DNA of 6,056 nt, taken from a virus. Below the pieces are notes generated by a model. The model was given only the letters and a program-made list of their open reading frames with translations. It was not told the origin of the DNA and did no database searches. The stretch is from the IMG/VR virus record IMGVR_UViG_3300020041_000042, positions 1 through 6,056 of that record; one strand, written 5' to 3'. The translations under genes were made by a program, and so were the position numbers. This document shows, piece after piece, positions 1 to 6,056 of the stretch. Within the stretch, counting starts at the first letter, position 1. Each line of letters begins with the position of its first letter.

Positions 1-121
1 AGCAGCCGACTAAAGCGATCGGGATTCGAGGGGACGACGGCCATAGGATGATACTTTAAGATGCTGCGAATCAAAGGTACTATTGCCGTGCCAGGAGTTG
101 TAGAAAACTGGCTAGTCGGAT
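1..121. repeat. Terminal direct repeat, copy 1, identical to 5936-6056. It is the overlap produced by linearising or assembling a circular genome.
   Basis: Base-by-base reading shows 1-121 (agcagccgactaaagcgatcggg...gctagtcggat) equals 5936-6056. The capsid reading frame runs through the junction without interruption. Confidence 0.95.
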
Positions 122-968
122 AAGGATTTAAATCACCCGCCAAATCACTCAACGCCATGACCGGGAAACCATCGCCGGAAGCGCCACTGCCTTCTATATC
201 CGACATAATAATCTGACCGTAAAGAGCGGCGCGATTATAAGAATTATTAGACGAGGAAAGAGCCGACGGGTAAAACTGGCTTTCAAAATAGGCGTCGAGG
301 TACTCAACATTACCGAAGCGTTGAGCAAAAAAGGATGCTTGTGGAAGAGGCTGCGACGAAAAAGCGCCGGAACCGTCTTCTGTAATATAGGAGGTTCCAG
401 GCCAGGCGAAAGAGTAAACACCCCACTGACTGTAGGCGTAATAGTTACGGACGATATCCCAATACGCTAGATAAGTATCAGAATTAAAATAAGCGGACGA
501 GTTGCCAGTAGTGGGAATAGACACACTTGTAGATTCTGCGTCGGTAAGCAACCGAGAGGGCTCCGTAACGGAGACACGAAGCCAATTAAAAAGCGAATTA
601 GAGTAACCACCACGCTTACTAAACATCTCAACGCCAGAAACAGCCGGAGTGCTGGGCGCCGGAATCCAGTTGAAGCTAACGCTATTCATGTCAAACTTAC
701 TGCTATTCGTTCGCATTTCAGGGTGGTACAGCTGCATCGGCACCCAAAAACGATGCAAACGAATAGTATAGGGATTGAACGTCGGAACAGCAAGGGGGTT
801 ACTGCGAACGTCAATACCCTGCTCAATAGATACGCGATCTCGAGCGTTAATGAAATCAATTCGCACCGGATACAAGATACCTGGTGTGCACGTAAAGGCT
901 TTGCTCTCAGGAACATCGTAACGAGAGTAACCATTTACAGCATGAGAGATAAAAGGTTGTTTTCCCAT
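1..968 (-). CDS. VP1: Microviridae major capsid protein VP1 (F-protein family), N-terminal about 322 codons. The gene continues across the circular junction into 5935->5101, for 600 aa in total.
   Basis: This is my own translation; the ORF track omits it because it runs off the window edge. ATG at 968-966 begins MGKQPFISHAVNGYSRYDVPESKAFTCTPGILYPVRIDFINARDRVSIEQGIDVRSNPLAVPTFNPYTIRLHRFWVPMQLYHPEM...SDTYLAYWDIVRNYYAYSQWG...IVPLIRSILKYHPMAVVPSNPDRFSRLL. There is no stop codon from 968 to 1. The frame matches ORF 5101..6009, since 968-74 is a multiple of 3. The N-terminal block (TPGxLxP, RxxFWVPxxxxxxxM) and the AYWDIVRNYY block are typical of microvirus capsid proteins. Confidence 0.93.
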   Translation of the reverse strand, partial: MGKQPFISHAVNGYSRYDVPESKAFTCTPGILYPVRIDFINARDRVSIEQGIDVRSNPLAVPTFNPYTIRLHRFWVPMQLYHPEMRTNSSKFDMNSVSFNWIPAPSTPAVSGVEMFSKRGGYSNSLFNWLRVSVTEPSRLLTDAESTSVSIPTTGNSSAYFNSDTYLAYWDIVRNYYAYSQWGVYSFAWPGTSYITEDGSGAFSSQPLPQASFFAQRFGNVEYLDAYFESQFYPSALSSSNNSYNRAALYGQIIMSDIEGSGASGDGFPVMALSDLAGDLNPYPTSQFSTTPGTAIVPLIRSILKYHPMAVVPSNPDRFSRL

Positions 969-971
969 AAA

Positions 972-2042
972 TTAAATAATTAGTTGAAGTTTATAGTGAT
1001 CTCTCCAAAACTGGAGAATATCCACGTCTAACCAAGTAGGGGGATCAAAATCGGGCATCTTCCGAGAAGACGCAGAGAAGCGCATTATTTGCTTTTGCTC
1101 CCACGTATACGACGCTCTACTGGATACGGCGGAATTGAGGGAGAACCGCTCAACACACAAAGACACAATACGCTTAACCAGAGGAGACTTGCTAAAACGT
1201 GCATAAGAATCAGCAGCGGTAATCGAGCGAACAACGTCGTCTTCCGGTTTGAGATACTTAAGATAGTATCGAGGAATCGAGTAATTATAATTGATACACT
1301 TCTCAAAATCGAAGTAAGACCACGACGAAACACGAGCAGAAGGGCAAGGCATATAACCAAGAAAATCACCAACGCCAGCAGATACGAATTTTCGCGTATA
1401 ACGGCGATGTTGGAGGAGGCAAGATAAAGGTGTAACATTTCCATCTACAGTAACATATTTATCCGAAATTTCTTCGGGATTGAATTGAATTTGTTTAGTA
1501 ACATACTTAACGCAATAACGAGCGCGTTTATGGGTAGCCTTCGCTAGCCACACAAAGCCAAGATCTCGAACAGCAGAACGAATAGTATTGTAAAGAACGT
1601 TTGTGCCAAATAGAAAGCCATGAAAATGCAATCGAGGTTCACTTCCCGTTTGGGGGTGAGTGCCGAACTCCTGAAAAAAGGCATGCTTAAACGAATGGCC
1701 AAGCTTATGACGAAGACGCTCGTTAAAACGGCGAATAAATCGAGAAGGGTCGAGTAAGGCCTCGTTATAATACTTCGGAGCAATCGTTATTGTAATAAAA
1801 ATAGCCTGCTGGTTATCAACCTTACAACGGGCAAGCTCGCGCTCTAGACGGACGAACCAGTCATTACGCTGACGACGCAAGCAATCTTCGCACTTTCCGC
1901 AGGGGACCATCAGCCACTGGCGGGCGATATCCCAGGGGCGAAGGGCTAAAGCAGACTTAGCGACATCAGAGCCATTACGACAAGGGTTTTTCTTATCGAA
2001 ATAACGGCGATTTCGTATCCATATGGGAGATAAACAGGGCAT
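972..2042 (-). CDS. VP4: Replication initiation protein VP4 (HUH rolling-circle endonuclease, phiX174 gene A family), 356 aa
   Basis: There is a CGKCEDC cysteine cluster (1901->1881) and RCR motif 1, FITITI (about 1799->1782). The HUH motif is LHFHGFLF, with HFH at 1628->1620. The two-tyrosine catalytic motif YCVKYVTK (1517->1503) resembles phiX A YVAKYVNK. The start ATG overlaps the upstream stop as TAATG. Confidence 0.93.
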   Translation of the reverse strand: MPCLSPIWIRNRRYFDKKNPCRNGSDVAKSALALRPWDIARQWLMVPCGKCEDCLRRQRNDWFVRLERELARCKVDNQQAIFITITIAPKYYNEALLDPSRFIRRFNERLRHKLGHSFKHAFFQEFGTHPQTGSEPRLHFHGFLFGTNVLYNTIRSAVRDLGFVWLAKATHKRARYCVKYVTKQIQFNPEEISDKYVTVDGNVTPLSCLLQHRRYTRKFVSAGVGDFLGYMPCPSARVSSWSYFDFEKCINYNYSIPRYYLKYLKPEDDVVRSITAADSYARFSKSPLVKRIVSLCVERFSLNSAVSSRASYTWEQKQIMRFSASSRKMPDFDPPTWLDVDILQFWRDHYKLQLII

Positions 2043-2242
2043 TAAAAAAGACTCTTAAGGCAATCAAACTTAATATAGGGATTAGTACGACGACAACGAA
2101 CAAGATAATCATTCGCAGCGCTTTCATCGGCGAACCAAGCGATAACGACTCGCCTTCTACCGCGATAAGCGCCAACGGAATAACGATGAATAATACTATT
2201 AACAACAAGAGAAAATCTAGGTCTAAAATCAAAATTATCCAT
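2042..2242 (-). CDS. Small basic hypothetical protein, 66 aa, translationally coupled to Rep. It sits in a VP5-like position and may bind DNA.
   Basis: ATG at 2242 is the first start after the intergenic terminator. Its TAA (2044->2042) overlaps the VP4 ATG (2042->2040). The protein has 10 Arg, including an RGRRR cluster, and I recognise no motif. A hydrophobic ORF in another frame (1993..2232) competes for the same DNA. Confidence 0.55.
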   Translation of the reverse strand: MDNFDFRPRFSLVVNSIIHRYSVGAYRGRRRVVIAWFADESAANDYLVRCRRTNPYIKFDCLKSLF

Positions 2243-2277
2243 AATCTGAAAATATTACCTTGTATTAACCGATGAAT

Positions 2278-2312
2278 AAAAAAACCCGCAGGAGATGAGC
2301 AATCTCCTGGGG
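2278..2312 (-). terminator. Rho-independent terminator on the coding (minus) strand
   Basis: The minus strand reads CCCCAGGAGAT-TGCTC-ATCTCCTGCGGG followed by TTTTTTT. That is a perfect 8-bp stem (CAGGAGAT/ATCTCCTG), three further G:C pairs across a 1-nt bulge, a 5-nt loop and a T7 tract (plus-strand A7 at 2278-2284). It lies in the 116-nt gap between ORF 2359.. and the 66-aa ORF. No T-run follows on the plus strand, so it acts in one direction only. Confidence 0.8.
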
Positions 2313-2358
2313 CTCAACGAGTTAAAGAACTCTTCCACCAAGCGGGCGGGTAACTATT

Positions 2359-2709
2359 TTAGTTCCCTTTCCCTTCTTCTTTCGACGTGCTTTCATAGCA
2401 ATCAATGTTGAAGTCAAACAAGACGACAATCGTATTGTCAAAGAATTCAATGCTAAAGCCGGGGAGACGTCCGCAGGCATTAATAATGTCGGGGAGTTTC
2501 GAATGCTCAATATAGAGCGAATCGCTAATACTCGAGCTCTCCAGAAAGGGCGAAATAGGAAAACTCGCAATAGAGTCAAGAGGAAGAGGTTTAAACTGAC
2601 CGTCTTCGATATGACCTACTTGGATAAGGTCAATTTTAAGAGCCGGATTAATCCGACGAATAACAACATGAATCTGTGACATAAGAGGAAAAAAATTAAA
2701 GTTCAACAT
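2359..2709 (-). CDS. Hypothetical protein, 116 aa from ATG 2709. The track ORF extends to a TTG at 2721, and ATG 2682 is an alternative start giving 107 aa.
   Basis: The ORF is on the coding strand and overlaps the upstream ORF's end by 14 nt (ATGTTGAACTTTAA). Sequence: MLNFNFFPLMSQIHVVIRRINPALKIDLIQVGHIEDGQFKPLPLD...FDFNIDCYESTSKEEGKGN. I recognise no family motif. It is the last gene before the terminator. Confidence 0.55.
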   Translation of the reverse strand: MLNFNFFPLMSQIHVVIRRINPALKIDLIQVGHIEDGQFKPLPLDSIASFPISPFLESSSISDSLYIEHSKLPDIINACGRLPGFSIEFFDNTIVVLFDFNIDCYESTSKEEGKGN

Positions 2710-3007
2710 CAAATCTTTCAAGAAAGTCTATCCATTCTCGCTCGACAGAGCACCAATAGGCTCGACCTTGAGGCGTAAGAACAAACGGAAAAGCTACAGA
2801 AATTGCATTGCGAAGCGTCAAGGATTTGCTGCGTAAAATCTCACGGAGATAAGAGCGAATGATTTCCCGAGGGTCAAAAAAGTCAGAGTCTTTGGGGAGG
2901 TTTGCGATAAATTTCGAATAGTATCCATGACGAATAAGCCATTCGACGAACAAATAATCAGCGACGTCCAAAATAAGAAGTCGAGAATCGATTTTGCCTC
3001 TTTTCAT
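2696..3007 (-). CDS. Hypothetical protein, 103 aa
   Basis: ATG at 3007 follows a 74-nt AT-rich spacer downstream of VP2. Sequence: MKRGKIDSRLLILDVADYLFVEWLIRHGYYSKF...AFPFVLTPQGRAYWCSVEREWIDFLERFDVEL. There is no transmembrane segment and no motif I can assign. It occupies the position where gokushoviruses carry scaffold VP3, but I cannot see similarity. Confidence 0.6.
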   Translation of the reverse strand: MKRGKIDSRLLILDVADYLFVEWLIRHGYYSKFIANLPKDSDFFDPREIIRSYLREILRSKSLTLRNAISVAFPFVLTPQGRAYWCSVEREWIDFLERFDVEL

Positions 3008-3033
3008 AATAATAGGGTTATTGGTTTACAACG

Positions 3034-3065
3034 CAAATATAAAAAATAAAAATTAAAAATGCAAG
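3034..3065 (-). promoter_or_regulatory. Candidate Bacteroidota-type (sigma-AB) promoter driving the 103-aa and 116-aa ORFs
   Basis: The minus strand reads CTTG (3065->3062), a 20-nt spacer, then TATATTTG (3041->3034). The Bacteroides consensus is -33 TTTG and -7 TAnnTTTG with a 19-21 nt spacer. Here the -7 element is exact and the -33 element matches 3 of 4. The -7 element ends 26 nt upstream of ATG 3007. Confidence 0.4.
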
Positions 3066-3081
3066 AAAAAAAACAATAATT

Positions 3082-4458
3082 TTACCTAACTCTACGAGCA
3101 TGATTATACGTACTCGAATAACCGCTACGATTCATTTCTGTTTTCGCATAACCAACAAGATTTCCTTTCGAATCGTAACGAGTTGTAAGTGAAGAGCCAG
3201 TGGAATTACTCGAAGATCCACCAGCAGAGATGGTGCTAGCCGCACGCGACATACCTCCGCGAATTATACCTGCACCAGCGATACTGGCGGCCGCACCAAC
3301 CAAAGCCTTGGAAATTTCAACATACGGATCAACCTTGGCATTACGAAGAGCAATCCGAGCTTGCTCAGGGAGAAAATCAGAAGCATTCGCTTCATTTATA
3401 GCGGTCTTGTCGTAGAAGTCCTTGAGAGACATCGAAATTTTAAAAGACCGAGGACCAGGATTGCCACGAGTAATAGGATTTCCGCTTCTAAGATTCGCCG
3501 AATATTGAGGATTAGGAATTTCAACTTCAAAACGCTTATCCCAATTGCGCGCAAGTTCATTGGCAGCATCGAGGTTGTTTAGACGCAAAGACTCTATGAC
3601 CTCACGAGCTTGCTCACCAAGGACTTGATTAAGAGCAGCCTGAGTATTCATCATAAAGGCCTGAGCAGACATAACAGCACCTAAATGCTCGTTCTCAATA
3701 CCCAAACGGCGAACCTCCGCAGCAGTTAAGGCAGCTTGATTCTTTTTTTCATCAATAGCGCTCAAAAGGGTAGCATCAGAGATAAAAAGCGCATTCTTTT
3801 CAAGACTTTCCTGTACCTTAAGAACATCAGTAACGGCCAAATTATGCTTAGTAGCAGCCTGATCTAGAGCTACGCGAGTTTGAGCCATGAGAGTATACAG
3901 CTGATGGCCGACGTTTTGATCGCTAATCGATTGAGCCTCGGCATTGTCGCGATTAGCGGCAGCGGAATTGCGGTCAACCGTAGACTGCGCAATCATATTT
4001 TGAGCGACGGCCGTAGGATCGCCAGAAACAAAGGCGCCAGGGCTGACGGGAGTACTACCAGAAGGGCCAGAAGCAGAAGGCATAGATGCAGAACCTCCCG
4101 ACATAGTAGCATTGACGCCAACACCTGAAGAACCGAGTACGGCAGCGGGCGTAACGCCGGCCTTCAAATAACGATCGAAAACCTTCGAAGGATCATTATA
4201 AGCATTCTCGTAGTCGAACTGTTTTTGCCAATTAGCGTAGGAAAGTTCAGACTGCTTTTGCATTTGCTCCAACGCGTACTGCTGTTGAAGCTTCATTTGC
4301 TTTTGCTGAAAACGCCATTGGCGACGAGCGTTCATGCCACCAAAAAGCTGGCCTAAAAAACCATTAATAAGACCGGTAGTTCCAGTAGAGGCGGCAGATT
4401 CACCAAGAGCACGACCGAAAGAAGCAGTGGCACCGGCGGCGGCAATAGGAGCAGACAT
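3082..4458 (-). CDS. VP2: Minor capsid / DNA pilot protein VP2 (phiX174 H-protein analogue), 458 aa
   Basis: The N-terminus is Gly/Ala-rich (MSAPIAAAGATASFGRALG...GLINGFLGQLFGG), followed by a Gln-rich helix (RRQWRFQQKQMKLQQQYALEQMQKQ). The block YNDPSKVFDRYLKAGVTPAAVLG resembles the conserved AG(L/V)NP block of microvirus VP2. A long region follows that looks helical or coiled-coil, then a Gly/Ala hydrophobic segment (ISKALVGAAASIAGAGIIRGG) and a Ser/Gly-rich tail. Its position after the capsid gene also fits. Confidence 0.85.
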   Translation of the reverse strand: MSAPIAAAGATASFGRALGESAASTGTTGLINGFLGQLFGGMNARRQWRFQQKQMKLQQQYALEQMQKQSELSYANWQKQFDYENAYNDPSKVFDRYLKAGVTPAAVLGSSGVGVNATMSGGSASMPSASGPSGSTPVSPGAFVSGDPTAVAQNMIAQSTVDRNSAAANRDNAEAQSISDQNVGHQLYTLMAQTRVALDQAATKHNLAVTDVLKVQESLEKNALFISDATLLSAIDEKKNQAALTAAEVRRLGIENEHLGAVMSAQAFMMNTQAALNQVLGEQAREVIESLRLNNLDAANELARNWDKRFEVEIPNPQYSANLRSGNPITRGNPGPRSFKISMSLKDFYDKTAINEANASDFLPEQARIALRNAKVDPYVEISKALVGAAASIAGAGIIRGGMSRAASTISAGGSSSNSTGSSLTTRYDSKGNLVGYAKTEMNRSGYSSTYNHARRVR

Positions 4459-4459
4459 G

Positions 4460-4651
4460 CTACAAATTAGTTAAATTGTTCGAACGAATAATGTAATCAA
4501 CACGCACAGTATCGATGTGAACGCCACTACGCTGCATTCTAGCTTGAGCTGAACACGAAGCAAGAAAAAAAGCAGCCAGCGCGGCAACGATAGACGAAAC
4601 AAGTGTCCAAAAAGCCTTCGACTTATAGAAGGGTTGTTTAGTATCAGACAT
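4460..4651 (-). CDS. Small predicted lipoprotein or membrane protein, 63 aa from ATG 4651. The track ORF extends to ATG 4762.
   Basis: MSDTKQPFYKSKAFW-TLVSSIVAALAAFFLA-SC has a Lys-containing n-region, a 16-aa hydrophobic core and a lipobox, L-A-S-C (Cys33 codon at 4555->4553). The mature part would be only 30 aa (SAQARMQRSGVHIDTVRVDYIIRSNNLTNL). The TAG stop lies 1 nt before the VP2 ATG. Confidence 0.65.
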   Translation of the reverse strand: MSDTKQPFYKSKAFWTLVSSIVAALAAFFLASCSAQARMQRSGVHIDTVRVDYIIRSNNLTNL

Positions 4652-4681
4652 AGAAATAAAAATTAAAGAACGATAGAAAAA

Positions 4682-4754
4682 TGCGCGGCCTCTCCTGCAG
4701 TCGTTACCAATAACCTTCAGCAATTCACGAACTCTTTCAGAAGGGGTCCGCGCA
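4682..4754 (-). other. GC-rich long imperfect hairpin in the spacer between the acidic ORF and the lipoprotein gene
   Basis: On the plus strand, tgcgcgg (4682-4688) is the exact reverse complement of ccgcgca (4748-4754). The stem can extend by 5 more pairs, including one G:T (cctct 4689-4693 with agggg 4742-4746), across a 1-nt bulge (t4747). On the coding strand the 3' arm is followed by ATTTTTCT. This is the most GC-rich patch in an otherwise AT-rich non-coding fraction. Confidence 0.45.
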
Positions 4755-4784
4755 CGTAGCATATATCGTCAAGTAAAGGATATA

Positions 4785-5081
4785 CTATTTTTCTTCAGAG
4801 GTAATAGACTTCGAAGCAGACTTCGACCGATCTATTTCTGAATCAATAAGTTCCTGGCCAACTTCGAGACCATCAAACTTATCCATACGAGAAAATGAGT
4901 TAGGGTCGAAGTCGATTTCGGGGTTGAACTTCTCGCCCTTCTCAAAGTCAGAGGGCTCAGCTGTCACATCCGGACGACCGGGTAAAACGTCAACGGTGCC
5001 GGAACCATCGAGGACAGACATAATTCGCTGTCCACGGGAAACGTATTGAGGAGGATCCTCTAAAAGCCAATCAAGTGCCAT
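4785..5081 (-). CDS. Acidic hypothetical protein, 98 aa from ATG 5081. The track ORF starts at a TTG at 5141, inside VP1. Possibly a scaffolding-type protein.
   Basis: ATG 5081 lies 19 nt after the VP1 stop cluster. Sequence: MALDWLLEDPPQYVSRGQRIMSVLDGSGTVDVLPGRPDVTAEPSDFEKGEKFNPEIDFDPNSFSRMDKFDGLEVGQELIDSEIDRSKSASKSITSEEK. It is strongly Asp/Glu-rich and looks low in predicted structure. I recognise no motif. Confidence 0.55.
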   Translation of the reverse strand: MALDWLLEDPPQYVSRGQRIMSVLDGSGTVDVLPGRPDVTAEPSDFEKGEKFNPEIDFDPNSFSRMDKFDGLEVGQELIDSEIDRSKSASKSITSEEK

Positions 5082-5100
5082 AGGTGAAATAATTTTATCA

Positions 5101-6056
5101 TTAACGATTAGATAAACGGGTCGCAAATGTTTTGTTAACAAGGTTCTTCTTGCGCACGCTATAGGAGAGATTCACAAAGAAGTTATCCTCAACATTCGAC
5201 AAGAAAGGAGAATTAACCTGCGGCATATCAACAAAAAGGAGAGATGCGACATAACTAGAAGGAAGCGCAGTCCCTTTCAAGAGAGCCGAAGAATAGCGCT
5301 GCTGAACCCAATAAGAATAAAGAGGAACCGAGCCAGTACCAGAGGGACCGGAAAATACCGAAAGTTGTCCGAGCACCTCATCATACGACGACCTAAATTC
5401 GTTGTAACACGGCTCCTTGGCTATAGAAGAAACAGAAGTAGACTGGCCAAAAACATCTGTAGAAACGTCCTGATAACCGATATCATTGTAGATAGGGTTA
5501 AAATAATCAGAACCGCGATAAGTCAAATAATCAGGTCGAATGCCAGCCCAATAGTATACAGGACGAATACTAAGCATGTCAATCATATAGCCGGGTTCGC
5601 GAAAGTAATACGATTGGGAACGGCCAAGCTGGGCATTAAACGCGATCGAGCCGCCTTGCTGACCAAGAGGACCCATCGACGAATCTCCTCCAAAATTGCT
5701 AAATCCGGCTTGATTCATAACAACCTGAACGTTAACAGTCTGCGAGGCACTAAACAAGAGTTTAGGACGATCGACGTGTTCTATCTTAGACGCAAAGAAT
5801 GTTTCGAGCCAATCTGAATAACGATTACCGCCAGCGCCAAGAAGGTCTTTATACTCCTGCAAACGCGAAGCAATAGCAAGCTGAGGAATAGTAGAAACAC
5901 CAGTCATAGAAACGGCATCTGACGAACCATTAGGCAGCAGCCGACTAAAGCGATCGGGATTCGAGGGGACGACGGCCATAGGATGATACTTTAAGATGCT
6001 GCGAATCAAAGGTACTATTGCCGTGCCAGGAGTTGTAGAAAACTGGCTAGTCGGAT
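5101..6056 (-). CDS. VP1: Microviridae major capsid protein VP1, C-terminal part. The unique portion is 5101-5935; 5936-6056 repeats 1-121.
   Basis: The track ORF 5101..6009 starts at an internal TTG (Leu) codon, and the frame stays open upstream to the window end. The protein ends ...FVNLSYSVRKKNLVNKTFATRLSNR. It is followed by three tandem in-frame stops, TAA-TGA-TAA (5103->5095). Total length is 968 + 835 = 1803 nt, or 600 aa plus stop. Confidence 0.93.
   Translation of the reverse strand, partial: PTSQFSTTPGTAIVPLIRSILKYHPMAVVPSNPDRFSRLLPNGSSDAVSMTGVSTIPQLAIASRLQEYKDLLGAGGNRYSDWLETFFASKIEHVDRPKLLFSASQTVNVQVVMNQAGFSNFGGDSSMGPLGQQGGSIAFNAQLGRSQSYYFREPGYMIDMLSIRPVYYWAGIRPDYLTYRGSDYFNPIYNDIGYQDVSTDVFGQSTSVSSIAKEPCYNEFRSSYDEVLGQLSVFSGPSGTGSVPLYSYWVQQRYSSALLKGTALPSSYVASLLFVDMPQVNSPFLSNVEDNFFVNLSYSVRKKNLVNKTFATRLSNR
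5936..6056. repeat. Terminal direct repeat, copy 2, a duplicate of 1-121. The unit genome length is 5,935 nt.
   Basis: Same as copy 1. Position 5936 corresponds to position 1. Confidence 0.95.

Follow-up and report, generated by a model that had tools for sequence, protein, structure and literature searches.

The DNA analysed here is a 6,056-nucleotide (nt) viral sequence (IMG/VR record IMGVR_UViG_3300020041_000042, positions 1 to 6,056; hereafter the window), whose first 121 nt are repeated exactly at its end (1-121 = 5936-6056). This terminal direct repeat implies a circularly closed microvirus genome of 5,935 nt, every gene of which is carried by the minus strand. Our subject is the segment between the genes of VP2 and Rep (VP4), which contains a predicted promoter with a conserved leader, two open reading frames (ORFs) designated ORF-A and ORF-B, a small overprinted ORF with a J-like product, and a terminator-like hairpin. 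Its elements are as follows (aa, amino acids; pI, isoelectric point; K+R, lysine plus arginine content):

3065-2278, minus strand: the module under study
3065-3034, minus strand: Bacteroidota sigma-ABfr-type promoter (predicted), -33 cTTG at 3065-3062, N20, -7 TATATTTG at 3041-3034
3033-3008, minus strand: conserved 5' leader, near-invariant core AACCAATAACC at 3026-3016
3007-2696, minus strand: ORF-A, 103 aa, all-helical domain, signature AF.F..TPEG..YW......W
2682-2359, minus strand: ORF-B, 107 aa, acidic (pI 4.7), compact alpha/beta, disordered C-terminal tail
2396-2322, minus strand: 24-aa ORF MKARRKKKGKGTKIVTRPLGGRVL, in the +1 frame, overlapping the last 38 nt of ORF-B; pI 12, 42% K+R
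2312-2278, minus strand: hairpin and U7, stem CCCCAGGAGAU / loop UGCUC / AUCUCCUG-C-GGG (2312-2285), U7 at 2284-2278

We compared these elements with those of 80 related genomes, gathered via ORF-B, and of annotated records, the nearest of which are uncultured Microviridae from the faeces of pig, deer, rodent, lemur, tortoise and marmot. The gene order is common to the window genome and its annotated relatives. An initial annotation of the segment had described a 74-nt AT-rich spacer followed by a 103-aa ORF and, overlapping it by 14 nt, an ORF of about 116 aa. The spacer (3081-3008) and the first ORF (3007-2696) are as described; the second exists as well, but it starts at the ATG at 2682 and encodes 107 aa. 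This start follows from the homologues of ORF-B, 510 in total, whose lengths and starts agree: 118 of the 120 listed are 107 aa long and begin with M[ST]QIHV, and the in-frame ATG farther upstream, at 2709, is found in the window genome alone. The 116-aa version, and with it the overlap and the coupled translation that it implied, thus came from a mis-called start. The real gap between ORF-A and ORF-B is 13 nt, compared with 11 nt in 55 of 78 relatives.

The spacer has a GC content of 0.18, against 0.447 for the genome, and had been noted for a promoter-like element. A conserved element does lie there, but it is not of the sigma-70 type: a sigma-70 scan gave no site on the coding strand of the spacer and 9 sites in the whole window, where 9.2 were expected by chance, which ruled that candidate out. 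What the spacer contains is cTTG-N20-TATATTTG; the consensus of Bacteroidetes sigma-ABfr promoters is -33 TTTG and -7 TAnnTTTG (PMC7366714). The -7 box fits this consensus, and on its coding strand the window has no other full -33/-7 match. The -7 box recurs in the spacers of 67 of 77 relatives, in 60 cases exactly 26 nt from the ORF-A ATG, and 34 of the 39 full-consensus sites across the circular relatives occupy this position before ORF-A. The -33 element, CTTG at N20 here, is mostly cTTTG in relatives, with TTTG in the expected interval, about 19-21 nt upstream, for 43 of the 68 -7 boxes scored. The promoter also stands right after VP2 in bajarodmic virus 624, Dipodfec virus 656, Microvirus mar42 and Poophage MBI-2016a. 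Judged by these patterns, it would be the strongest predicted promoter of the genome and possibly its main one, rather than an add-on.

The leader that links the promoter to ORF-A is conserved as well. In relatives, the -7 box is followed by a near-invariant GTAAACCAATAACC, and in the core motif no position falls below 80% agreement on one base across 77 relatives. The window carries A at positions -3, -6, -11, -12, -14 and -15 relative to the ORF-A ATG, a pattern that reportedly promotes translation in the Bacteroidetes, with their lack of Shine-Dalgarno sequences (PMC7366714); no Shine-Dalgarno sequence was found upstream of any gene here. In one relative (MG945141), promoter and leader are kept though ORF-A is deleted. 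The type of promoter, the A-rich leader and the lack of Shine-Dalgarno sequences suggest that the host is probably a member of the Bacteroidota; no named host was found among the VP1 relatives.

From the ORF-B stop to the hairpin there are about 40 nt, which are coding, as they hold the 3' part of the 24-aa ORF. The ATG, the stop codon and the peptide of this ORF are kept in 79 of 80 relatives, the exception lying at a contig end. Its entropy by codon position is 2.3/1.2/11.4, most of the variation thus falling on the third position, and the ratio of synonymous to non-synonymous differences in its frame is 8951:2275, compared with 1264:9396 and 369:10172 in the control frames. Residues 97-107 of ORF-B, the overlapped tail, are predicted to be disordered, which fits the overprinted arrangement. 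Counterparts of 23-29 aa, likewise basic and all unannotated, turned up in seven genomes farther removed, where the underlying nucleotide sequences are very different:

bajarodmic virus 22: MSRRKKKSSGRRVVSRPLGGNVL
bajarodmic virus 624: MSRKKKKTRSNGVRVVVRPVGGKVL
Dipodfec virus 656: MSKRGRARRRSSGRRVVNRPVLGTVL
Tortoise microvirus 110: MSRKNRRRKQTRGTRVVTRPLLGPVL
Poophage MBI-2016a: MSRKKKTRGKGGKRIVVRPLGGKVL
bajarodmic virus 974: MSRKNRRRKSGRRTIRRPLLGPVL
Microvirus mar42: (MNFF)MSRKNRRRKKSGRRVVHRPLLGPVM

The ORF persists down to about 39% VP1 identity, and by this distribution it is a core gene of the lineage. Nevertheless, the small basic ORF was unannotated in all 10 GenBank records inspected (MG945730, MG945141, MG945455, PQ006260, PQ006833, OQ686888, MZ089788, PQ007228, MK765667 and LT986678). 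No equivalent of J/VP8 was found earlier in Bacteroidetes-associated microviruses, in the study from which the J/VP8 size range of about 25-45 aa is taken (PMC3091885), and a large microvirus survey deliberately skipped overprinted genes (PMC9239249).

Lysine and arginine make up 42% of the 24-aa peptide, compared with 32% of phiX174 J (38 aa) and 43% of ORF8 of the chlamydia phage Chp2 (44 aa). The peptide ends in ...PLGGRVL, with a hydrophobic last residue, and this end resembles those of phiX174 J (...ARLWYVGGQQF) and Chp2 ORF8 (...RRIMRGGIRF). In solved virions, the C-termini of J/VP8 proteins occupy the same hydrophobic capsid pocket, and only their last four residues are structurally conserved (PMC11281519). 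By its features and position, and not by detectable homology, the 24-aa product is a candidate DNA-binding/packaging protein of the J/VP8 type.

ORF-B lies directly before this gene. Its AlphaFold2 (AF2) model was confident (predicted local distance difference test score, pLDDT, 84.9; predicted template modelling score, pTM, 0.74), with residues 97-107 below 50. A Foldseek search of the PDB with this model returned nothing at E <= 0.001, in a copy of the database whose content of scaffold-containing microvirus entries was unchecked; the best match, GFRP (E = 0.12, TM-score 0.35-0.43), was treated as chance. In the viral fold library BFVD, the model matched solely uncharacterised Microviridae proteins, including one from mar42. 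Sequence homologues of ORF-B occur in bajarodmic virus 22, bajarodmic virus 624, Dipodfec virus 656 and Tortoise microvirus 110, and ORF-B is retained where ORF-A has been lost. As far as its distribution in sequenced relatives tells, ORF-B is likewise a core gene of the lineage. In two genomes, a different conserved gene of 118-127 aa lies directly 5' of the J-like ORF (mar42, L094, 3718-4101; bajarodmic virus 974, L095, 3923-4279). The product of the mar42 gene matches ORF-B at the level of fold (Foldseek E = 2.5e-4) and has no sequence similarity to it; the relationship may reflect an old duplication or a replacement.

We consider that ORF-B most likely serves as a factor in assembly or packaging and is co-produced with the 24-aa product, and hold this view with modest confidence. 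A more specific proposal is that ORF-B, and possibly ORF-A, is an internal scaffold or assembly protein, the equivalent of VP3/B or VP5/C diverged beyond recognition, which would be co-expressed with the J-like protein and displaced by it during packaging. Its position is that of the scaffold gene in the Chp2 order VP2-VP3-ORF8-Rep and recalls the phiX174 order D-J followed by a terminator; its pI of 4.7 is close to those of Chp2 VP3 (4.8) and phiX174 D (4.9), B being at 5.6; it is universal in the lineage and, by prediction, transcriptionally linked to the J-like gene; and its fold is common only to other microvirus proteins. However, the proposal gains nothing from sequence or fold comparisons. 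Comparison by hhalign of the ORF-A, ORF-B, orf66 and orf118 families with phiX174 B, C, D and K and with Chp2 VP3 and ORF5 gave probabilities below 1% in all cases, 0.3% or less when ORF-A and ORF-B were compared with B and VP3, and at most 0.6% everywhere against the external scaffold D, protein C (phiX174) and VP5 (Chp2). The Foldseek search was equally negative, and the compact globular fold is unlike those of known internal scaffolds. Moreover, the literature's positional candidate for VP3 is another gene, the ORF directly after VP1 (PMC3091885), a slot filled here by the also acidic orf118 (pI 4.5), in which hhalign finds no likeness to Chp2 VP3 or phiX174 B. The initial annotation had raised divergent VP3/VP5 scaffolds as the conservative reading; the position, as in Chp2, speaks for this, and the sequence and the fold do not. 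A scaffold of this kind is therefore possible but rather doubtful. The accompanying statement that neither protein could be tied to microvirus scaffolds, enzymes or membrane proteins holds, none of these ties being detectable for ORF-A or ORF-B, and the profile and fold comparisons with scaffold proteins, on which that annotation had staked its reading, revealed no homology for either ORF.

ORF-A differs from its neighbours in its evolution. Its AF2 model is very confident and all-helical (pLDDT 91.2, pTM 0.82) and has no neighbour in the PDB (best Foldseek E = 6.6); sequence profiles of the PDB gave nothing for ORF-A or ORF-B. One protein family fills the ORF-A slot in 78 of 80 relatives, and it is the fastest-evolving gene of the clade, with a median identity to the window copy of 35%, where ORF-B has 61% and the other genes 70-89%. 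Two genomes, MG945141 and bajarodmic virus 22, have lost it by clean deletion, and in one more relative (L073) it is interrupted by an in-frame stop; in mar42 and bajarodmic virus 974, no member of the ORF-A family was detected among the ORFs that separate VP2 from the J-like gene. Because of this fast evolution, the two clean losses and the in-frame stop, ORF-A appears to be a dispensable, variable passenger in a core module.

An exhaustive profile search with the ORF-A family recovered 135 proteins at E <= 0.001. They comprise microvirus copies, many stand-alone proteins of about 80-110 aa, and long proteins with up to nine tandem modules, and the signature AF.W..TPEG..YW......W is common to the stand-alone and the repeated copies. 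Among the long proteins are one of 964 aa with 9 repeats (P0141) and one of 860 aa from the eukaryotic gut symbiont Blattamonas nauphoetae (P0159); in some long tandem arrays, acidic linkers join the domains. The stand-alone copies sit in long arrays of small co-directional ORFs of unknown function, on contigs that resemble those of double-stranded DNA (dsDNA) phages; at least four adjacent paralogues were seen on one 7.4-kb phage-like contig (L093). The family matches PHROG families 16354, 10949 and 25460, which, like the tandem 'TPEG-YW' proteins, have neither a known function nor a solved structure. The matches to phrog_16354 involve 44 of 72 members (best E = 3.6e-7), and that of the window's own ORF-A is weak (E = 0.14). 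Pfam gave no domain above the curated cut-off in the tandem-repeat proteins, and tblastn of the stand-alone proteins against annotated phages recovered only the same microviruses.

Residues F73 and W85 are invariant in the ORF-A family, and L24, N36, T78, G81 and W92 are nearly so. This restriction of invariance to aromatic and small residues suggests a binding or structural module rather than an enzyme. Most likely, ORF-A is an accessory factor of the host-interaction type. Going further, we tentatively propose, as a possibility that is less probable than its opposite, that ORF-A is a horizontally shared accessory gene of a helical 'TPEG-YW' family circulating among large dsDNA phages, which was captured behind the strongest promoter of the microvirus lineage and would act in host takeover or counter-defence.

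The module is closed by the hairpin, which begins 9 nt past the stop codon of the J-like ORF. It has 14 pairs, including G-U, and a folding energy of -20.4 kcal/mol (z = -4.6), and none of 200 shuffled sequences folded as well. It is the best terminator-like site of the window, just as the initial annotation had it. In 40 of 64 genomes, the 60 nt that follow the J-like stop include a perfectly paired stem of 10 bp or more, compared with 0.9% of the intervals examined elsewhere (an enrichment of about 70-fold). The stems are of 27 distinct kinds, which differ by compensatory changes and often use G-U pairs, and a tail with at least 5 T in 10 nt follows in 51 of 68 relatives. The hairpin and the U-run are thus probably an intrinsic terminator, predicted to act partially.

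Single-stranded DNA phages need structures of this kind at the DNA level, an example being the intergenic complementary-strand origin of G4. It is conceivable that the hairpin acts mainly on the packaged strand, as a complementary-strand origin, a primosome entry site, or a Rep or packaging signal, which would be compatible with a role as terminator too. In favour of this are its location immediately before the Rep operon, a T-run that is weak in 17 of 68 relatives, and the conserved, hairpin-rich sequence of 100-130 nt that most relatives have in addition in this intergenic region. Yet many of the stems use G-T/T-G pairs, which hold well in RNA and badly in DNA; the stop is followed after 9-15 nt by the hairpin and then, usually, by the T-run, which is the standard layout of a terminator; and the window holds just this one hairpin in the region. 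We therefore regard a mainly DNA-level function as unlikely, and retain that of a partial terminator.

The intergenic region between the J-like stop and orf66, the gene that follows the module, measures 79 nt here (2243-2321) and about 200 nt in most relatives (L004, L006, L012, L031 and others). The extra part in the relatives is conserved and hairpin-rich, e.g., GCGTAACGAAATAGTTTTCGCGCTCGAAAGTACCGTCTTTCGAAGCGCA; it may be an element of the replication or complementary-strand origin that is lacking or shortened in the window genome. No full-consensus promoter was found between the hairpin and orf66 in any of 77 relatives. Inside orf66, 22 nt 5' of the Rep ATG, there is a -7-only box, TAAGTTTG (2065-2072, minus strand), which is present in 48 of 64 circular relatives. 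This box may act as a weaker internal promoter for Rep-VP1, or it may have arisen simply because orf66 encodes a conserved ...IKFD... motif there. The idea of a single promoter was dropped after this conserved box had been found.

The segment had originally been taken for an autonomous, moron-like cassette of two genes, for which host takeover, anti-defence or toxin/antitoxin-like roles had been suggested. That ORF-A and ORF-B are a horizontally acquired accessory pair inserted between VP2 and Rep would agree with the predicted promoter and terminator of their own, with the lack of resemblance of either protein to known microvirus proteins, and with the ORF-A family, which occurs in accessory-looking regions of dsDNA phages, evolves fastest here and is sometimes lost. 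But ORF-B and the overlapping J-like gene occupy the same position in essentially every relative, and only ORF-A shows presence and absence. Since ORF-B, the promoter and the leader persist after the loss of ORF-A, the two genes are not an obligate pair, and the accessory label survives for ORF-A alone. Moreover, the promoter of the presumed cassette is predicted to be the strongest, and possibly the main one, of the genome. The GC content, too, is like that of the rest of the genome (0.413 for ORF-A, 0.420 for ORF-B and 0.440 for the J-like ORF). As the elements are conserved and syntenic in relatives and the GC content of the two larger ORFs (0.41-0.42) is near that of the genome, the module therefore appears to be ancestral to the lineage and not an insertion. 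Searches of Pfam, PHROGs, NCBIfam and PADLOC gave nothing for ORF-A or ORF-B, no dedicated anti-defence library being included; in PADLOC, Pfam and NCBIfam, there was thus no match to a toxin/antitoxin family. We conclude that an acquired cassette is very unlikely. Still less credible, to the point of being nearly negligible, is that the 24-aa ORF is untranslated and owes its conservation to a cis-acting nucleic-acid element between ORF-B and the hairpin: in its favour, RNAfold places two small hairpins in the stretch, the peptide has no database homologue, and computation alone cannot prove overprinted genes (PMC9239249), but third positions vary in this frame only (synonymous to non-synonymous differences of 4:1, against 1:7 and 1:27), the ATG and the stop are kept in 79 of 80 relatives, the nucleotide sequences that specify such a peptide in distant relatives differ greatly, and the whole window gave no match in Rfam.

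Taken together, these results make it likely that positions 2278-3065 form a conserved, promoter-proximal expression module of a gut microvirus with a probable Bacteroidota host. The sigma-ABfr-type promoter and the A-rich leader devoid of a Shine-Dalgarno sequence would drive ORF-A, ORF-B and the J-like ORF, with transcription beginning before ORF-A, and the hairpin with its U-run would stop part of the transcripts. Proteins A and B and the J-like peptide would thereby be produced in excess over the products of orf66-Rep-VP1-...-VP2, which would be reached by read-through and/or from the weaker -7-only box in orf66. Phage phiX174 has three canonical promoters and four terminators, of which TJ, TF and TG are 40-60% efficient (PMC11527146). 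By this analogy, internal promoters combined with leaky terminators are normal for microviruses. Hence, the transcription unit recognized initially does have its own predicted promoter and terminator, but it is not unusual in a 5.9-kb phage.

A close parallel is the late unit pD-D-(E)-J-TJ of phiX174. In both cases, with the activities and protein roles being predictions for the window, an internal promoter precedes an acidic morphogenetic protein, next comes a tiny Lys/Arg-rich DNA-binding protein, the start of which overlaps the upstream gene, and a leaky intrinsic terminator is followed by further genes on a one-strand circle (PMC11527146). The differences are that the phiX174 promoter is of the sigma-70 type, whereas here it is of the Bacteroidota type; that the stop of D and the start of J share position 848 (a one-base overlap), whereas here 38 nt overlap in the +1 frame; that D has no similarity to ORF-B in sequence or fold; that phiX174 has no counterpart of the first gene, ORF-A, which belongs to a domain family from outside the microviruses; and that F-G-H lie downstream, in place of Rep and the capsid gene here. 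In the gokushovirus Chp2, the order VP2-VP3-ORF8 (VP8)-ORF4 (Rep) likewise places an acidic protein of about 100-150 aa and a small basic peptide with a hydrophobic C-terminus between the pilot gene and Rep. However, Chp2 VP3 has no detectable homology to ORF-B (no match to Pfam Chlamy_scaf; hhalign below 1%), and Chp2 ORF8 is free-standing and 44 aa long, in contrast to the overprinted 24-aa peptide. With the Bacteroidetes-associated Alpavirinae/BMV proviruses, the window genome shares the order VP4-VP1-...-VP2, a likely Bacteroidetes host, and the fact that only VP1, VP2 and VP4 are recognisable, other ORFs being unassigned (PMC3091885, PMC3394797). No J/VP8 equivalent has been reported in that group, unlike the J/VP8-type candidate here. 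No named Alpavirinae record or prophage was found among the VP1 relatives, so that membership of that group is at most putative.

Several observations weigh against the interpretation of the segment as an expression module with a J-like gene in a virus of the Bacteroidota. The activities of the promoter and the terminator are predictions made at the level of sequence, the -33 element of the window is CTTG and not TTTG, and the T-run is weak in the relatives mentioned above. The 24-aa peptide had no J/VP8 match in Pfam and PHROGs (E up to 10) or NCBIfam (0.1), a low-complexity query of this length having low power, and the GG motif is lost in the mar42-type relatives, which end in ...LLGPVL. 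ORF-B forms a compact domain rich in beta structure, in contrast to phiX174 B with its extended shape, and is without similarity to B, C, D, VP3 or VP5; the VP3-like scaffold of Bacteroidetes microviruses was proposed by Krupovic and Forterre to be the ORF directly after VP1 (PMC3091885). Finally, profile scans with ORF-B and VP1 found no integrated relatives in 185,579 species-representative genomes.

The remaining genes of the circle are as follows:

2242-2042, minus strand: orf66 (66 aa), between the module and Rep
2042-972, minus strand: Rep/VP4
from about 966, across the circle junction, to 5101, minus strand: VP1 (600 aa)
5141-4785, minus strand: orf118, acidic, overlapping the VP1 3' end
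4762-4460, minus strand: orf100
4458-3082, minus strand: VP2

VP1 appears as fragments in ORF lists because it spans the circle junction, and orf66 was absent from the initial annotation. The basic 100-aa product of orf100 contains a lipoprotein-type signal, ...KSKAFWTLVSSIVAALAAFFLASC, which comes after an internal Met and includes a lipobox-like LASC. Its median identity to the window copy is 87%, and it had no family match; it may be a small lipoprotein, possibly with a role in lysis or at the membrane. In Tortoise microvirus 110, a 'hypothetical protein' is annotated on the opposite strand (4240-4527), which is doubtful, since the genes of the family all face one way.

The module follows a known microvirus design in a version specific to its lineage. 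For this large and abundant group of microviruses from animal guts, it supplies a core gene that had been missing, that of a J/VP8-type peptide, and its ORF-A and ORF-B provide two confident folds without structural neighbours. Microviruses have been reported to be genetically isolated and to lack accessory genes (PMC9239249); if ORF-A was indeed captured, it would be an exception to both. Additionally, the set of promoter, leader and terminator, together with the predicted host phylum, could guide the resurrection of uncultured phages in Bacteroidota and the use of these elements as expression parts.

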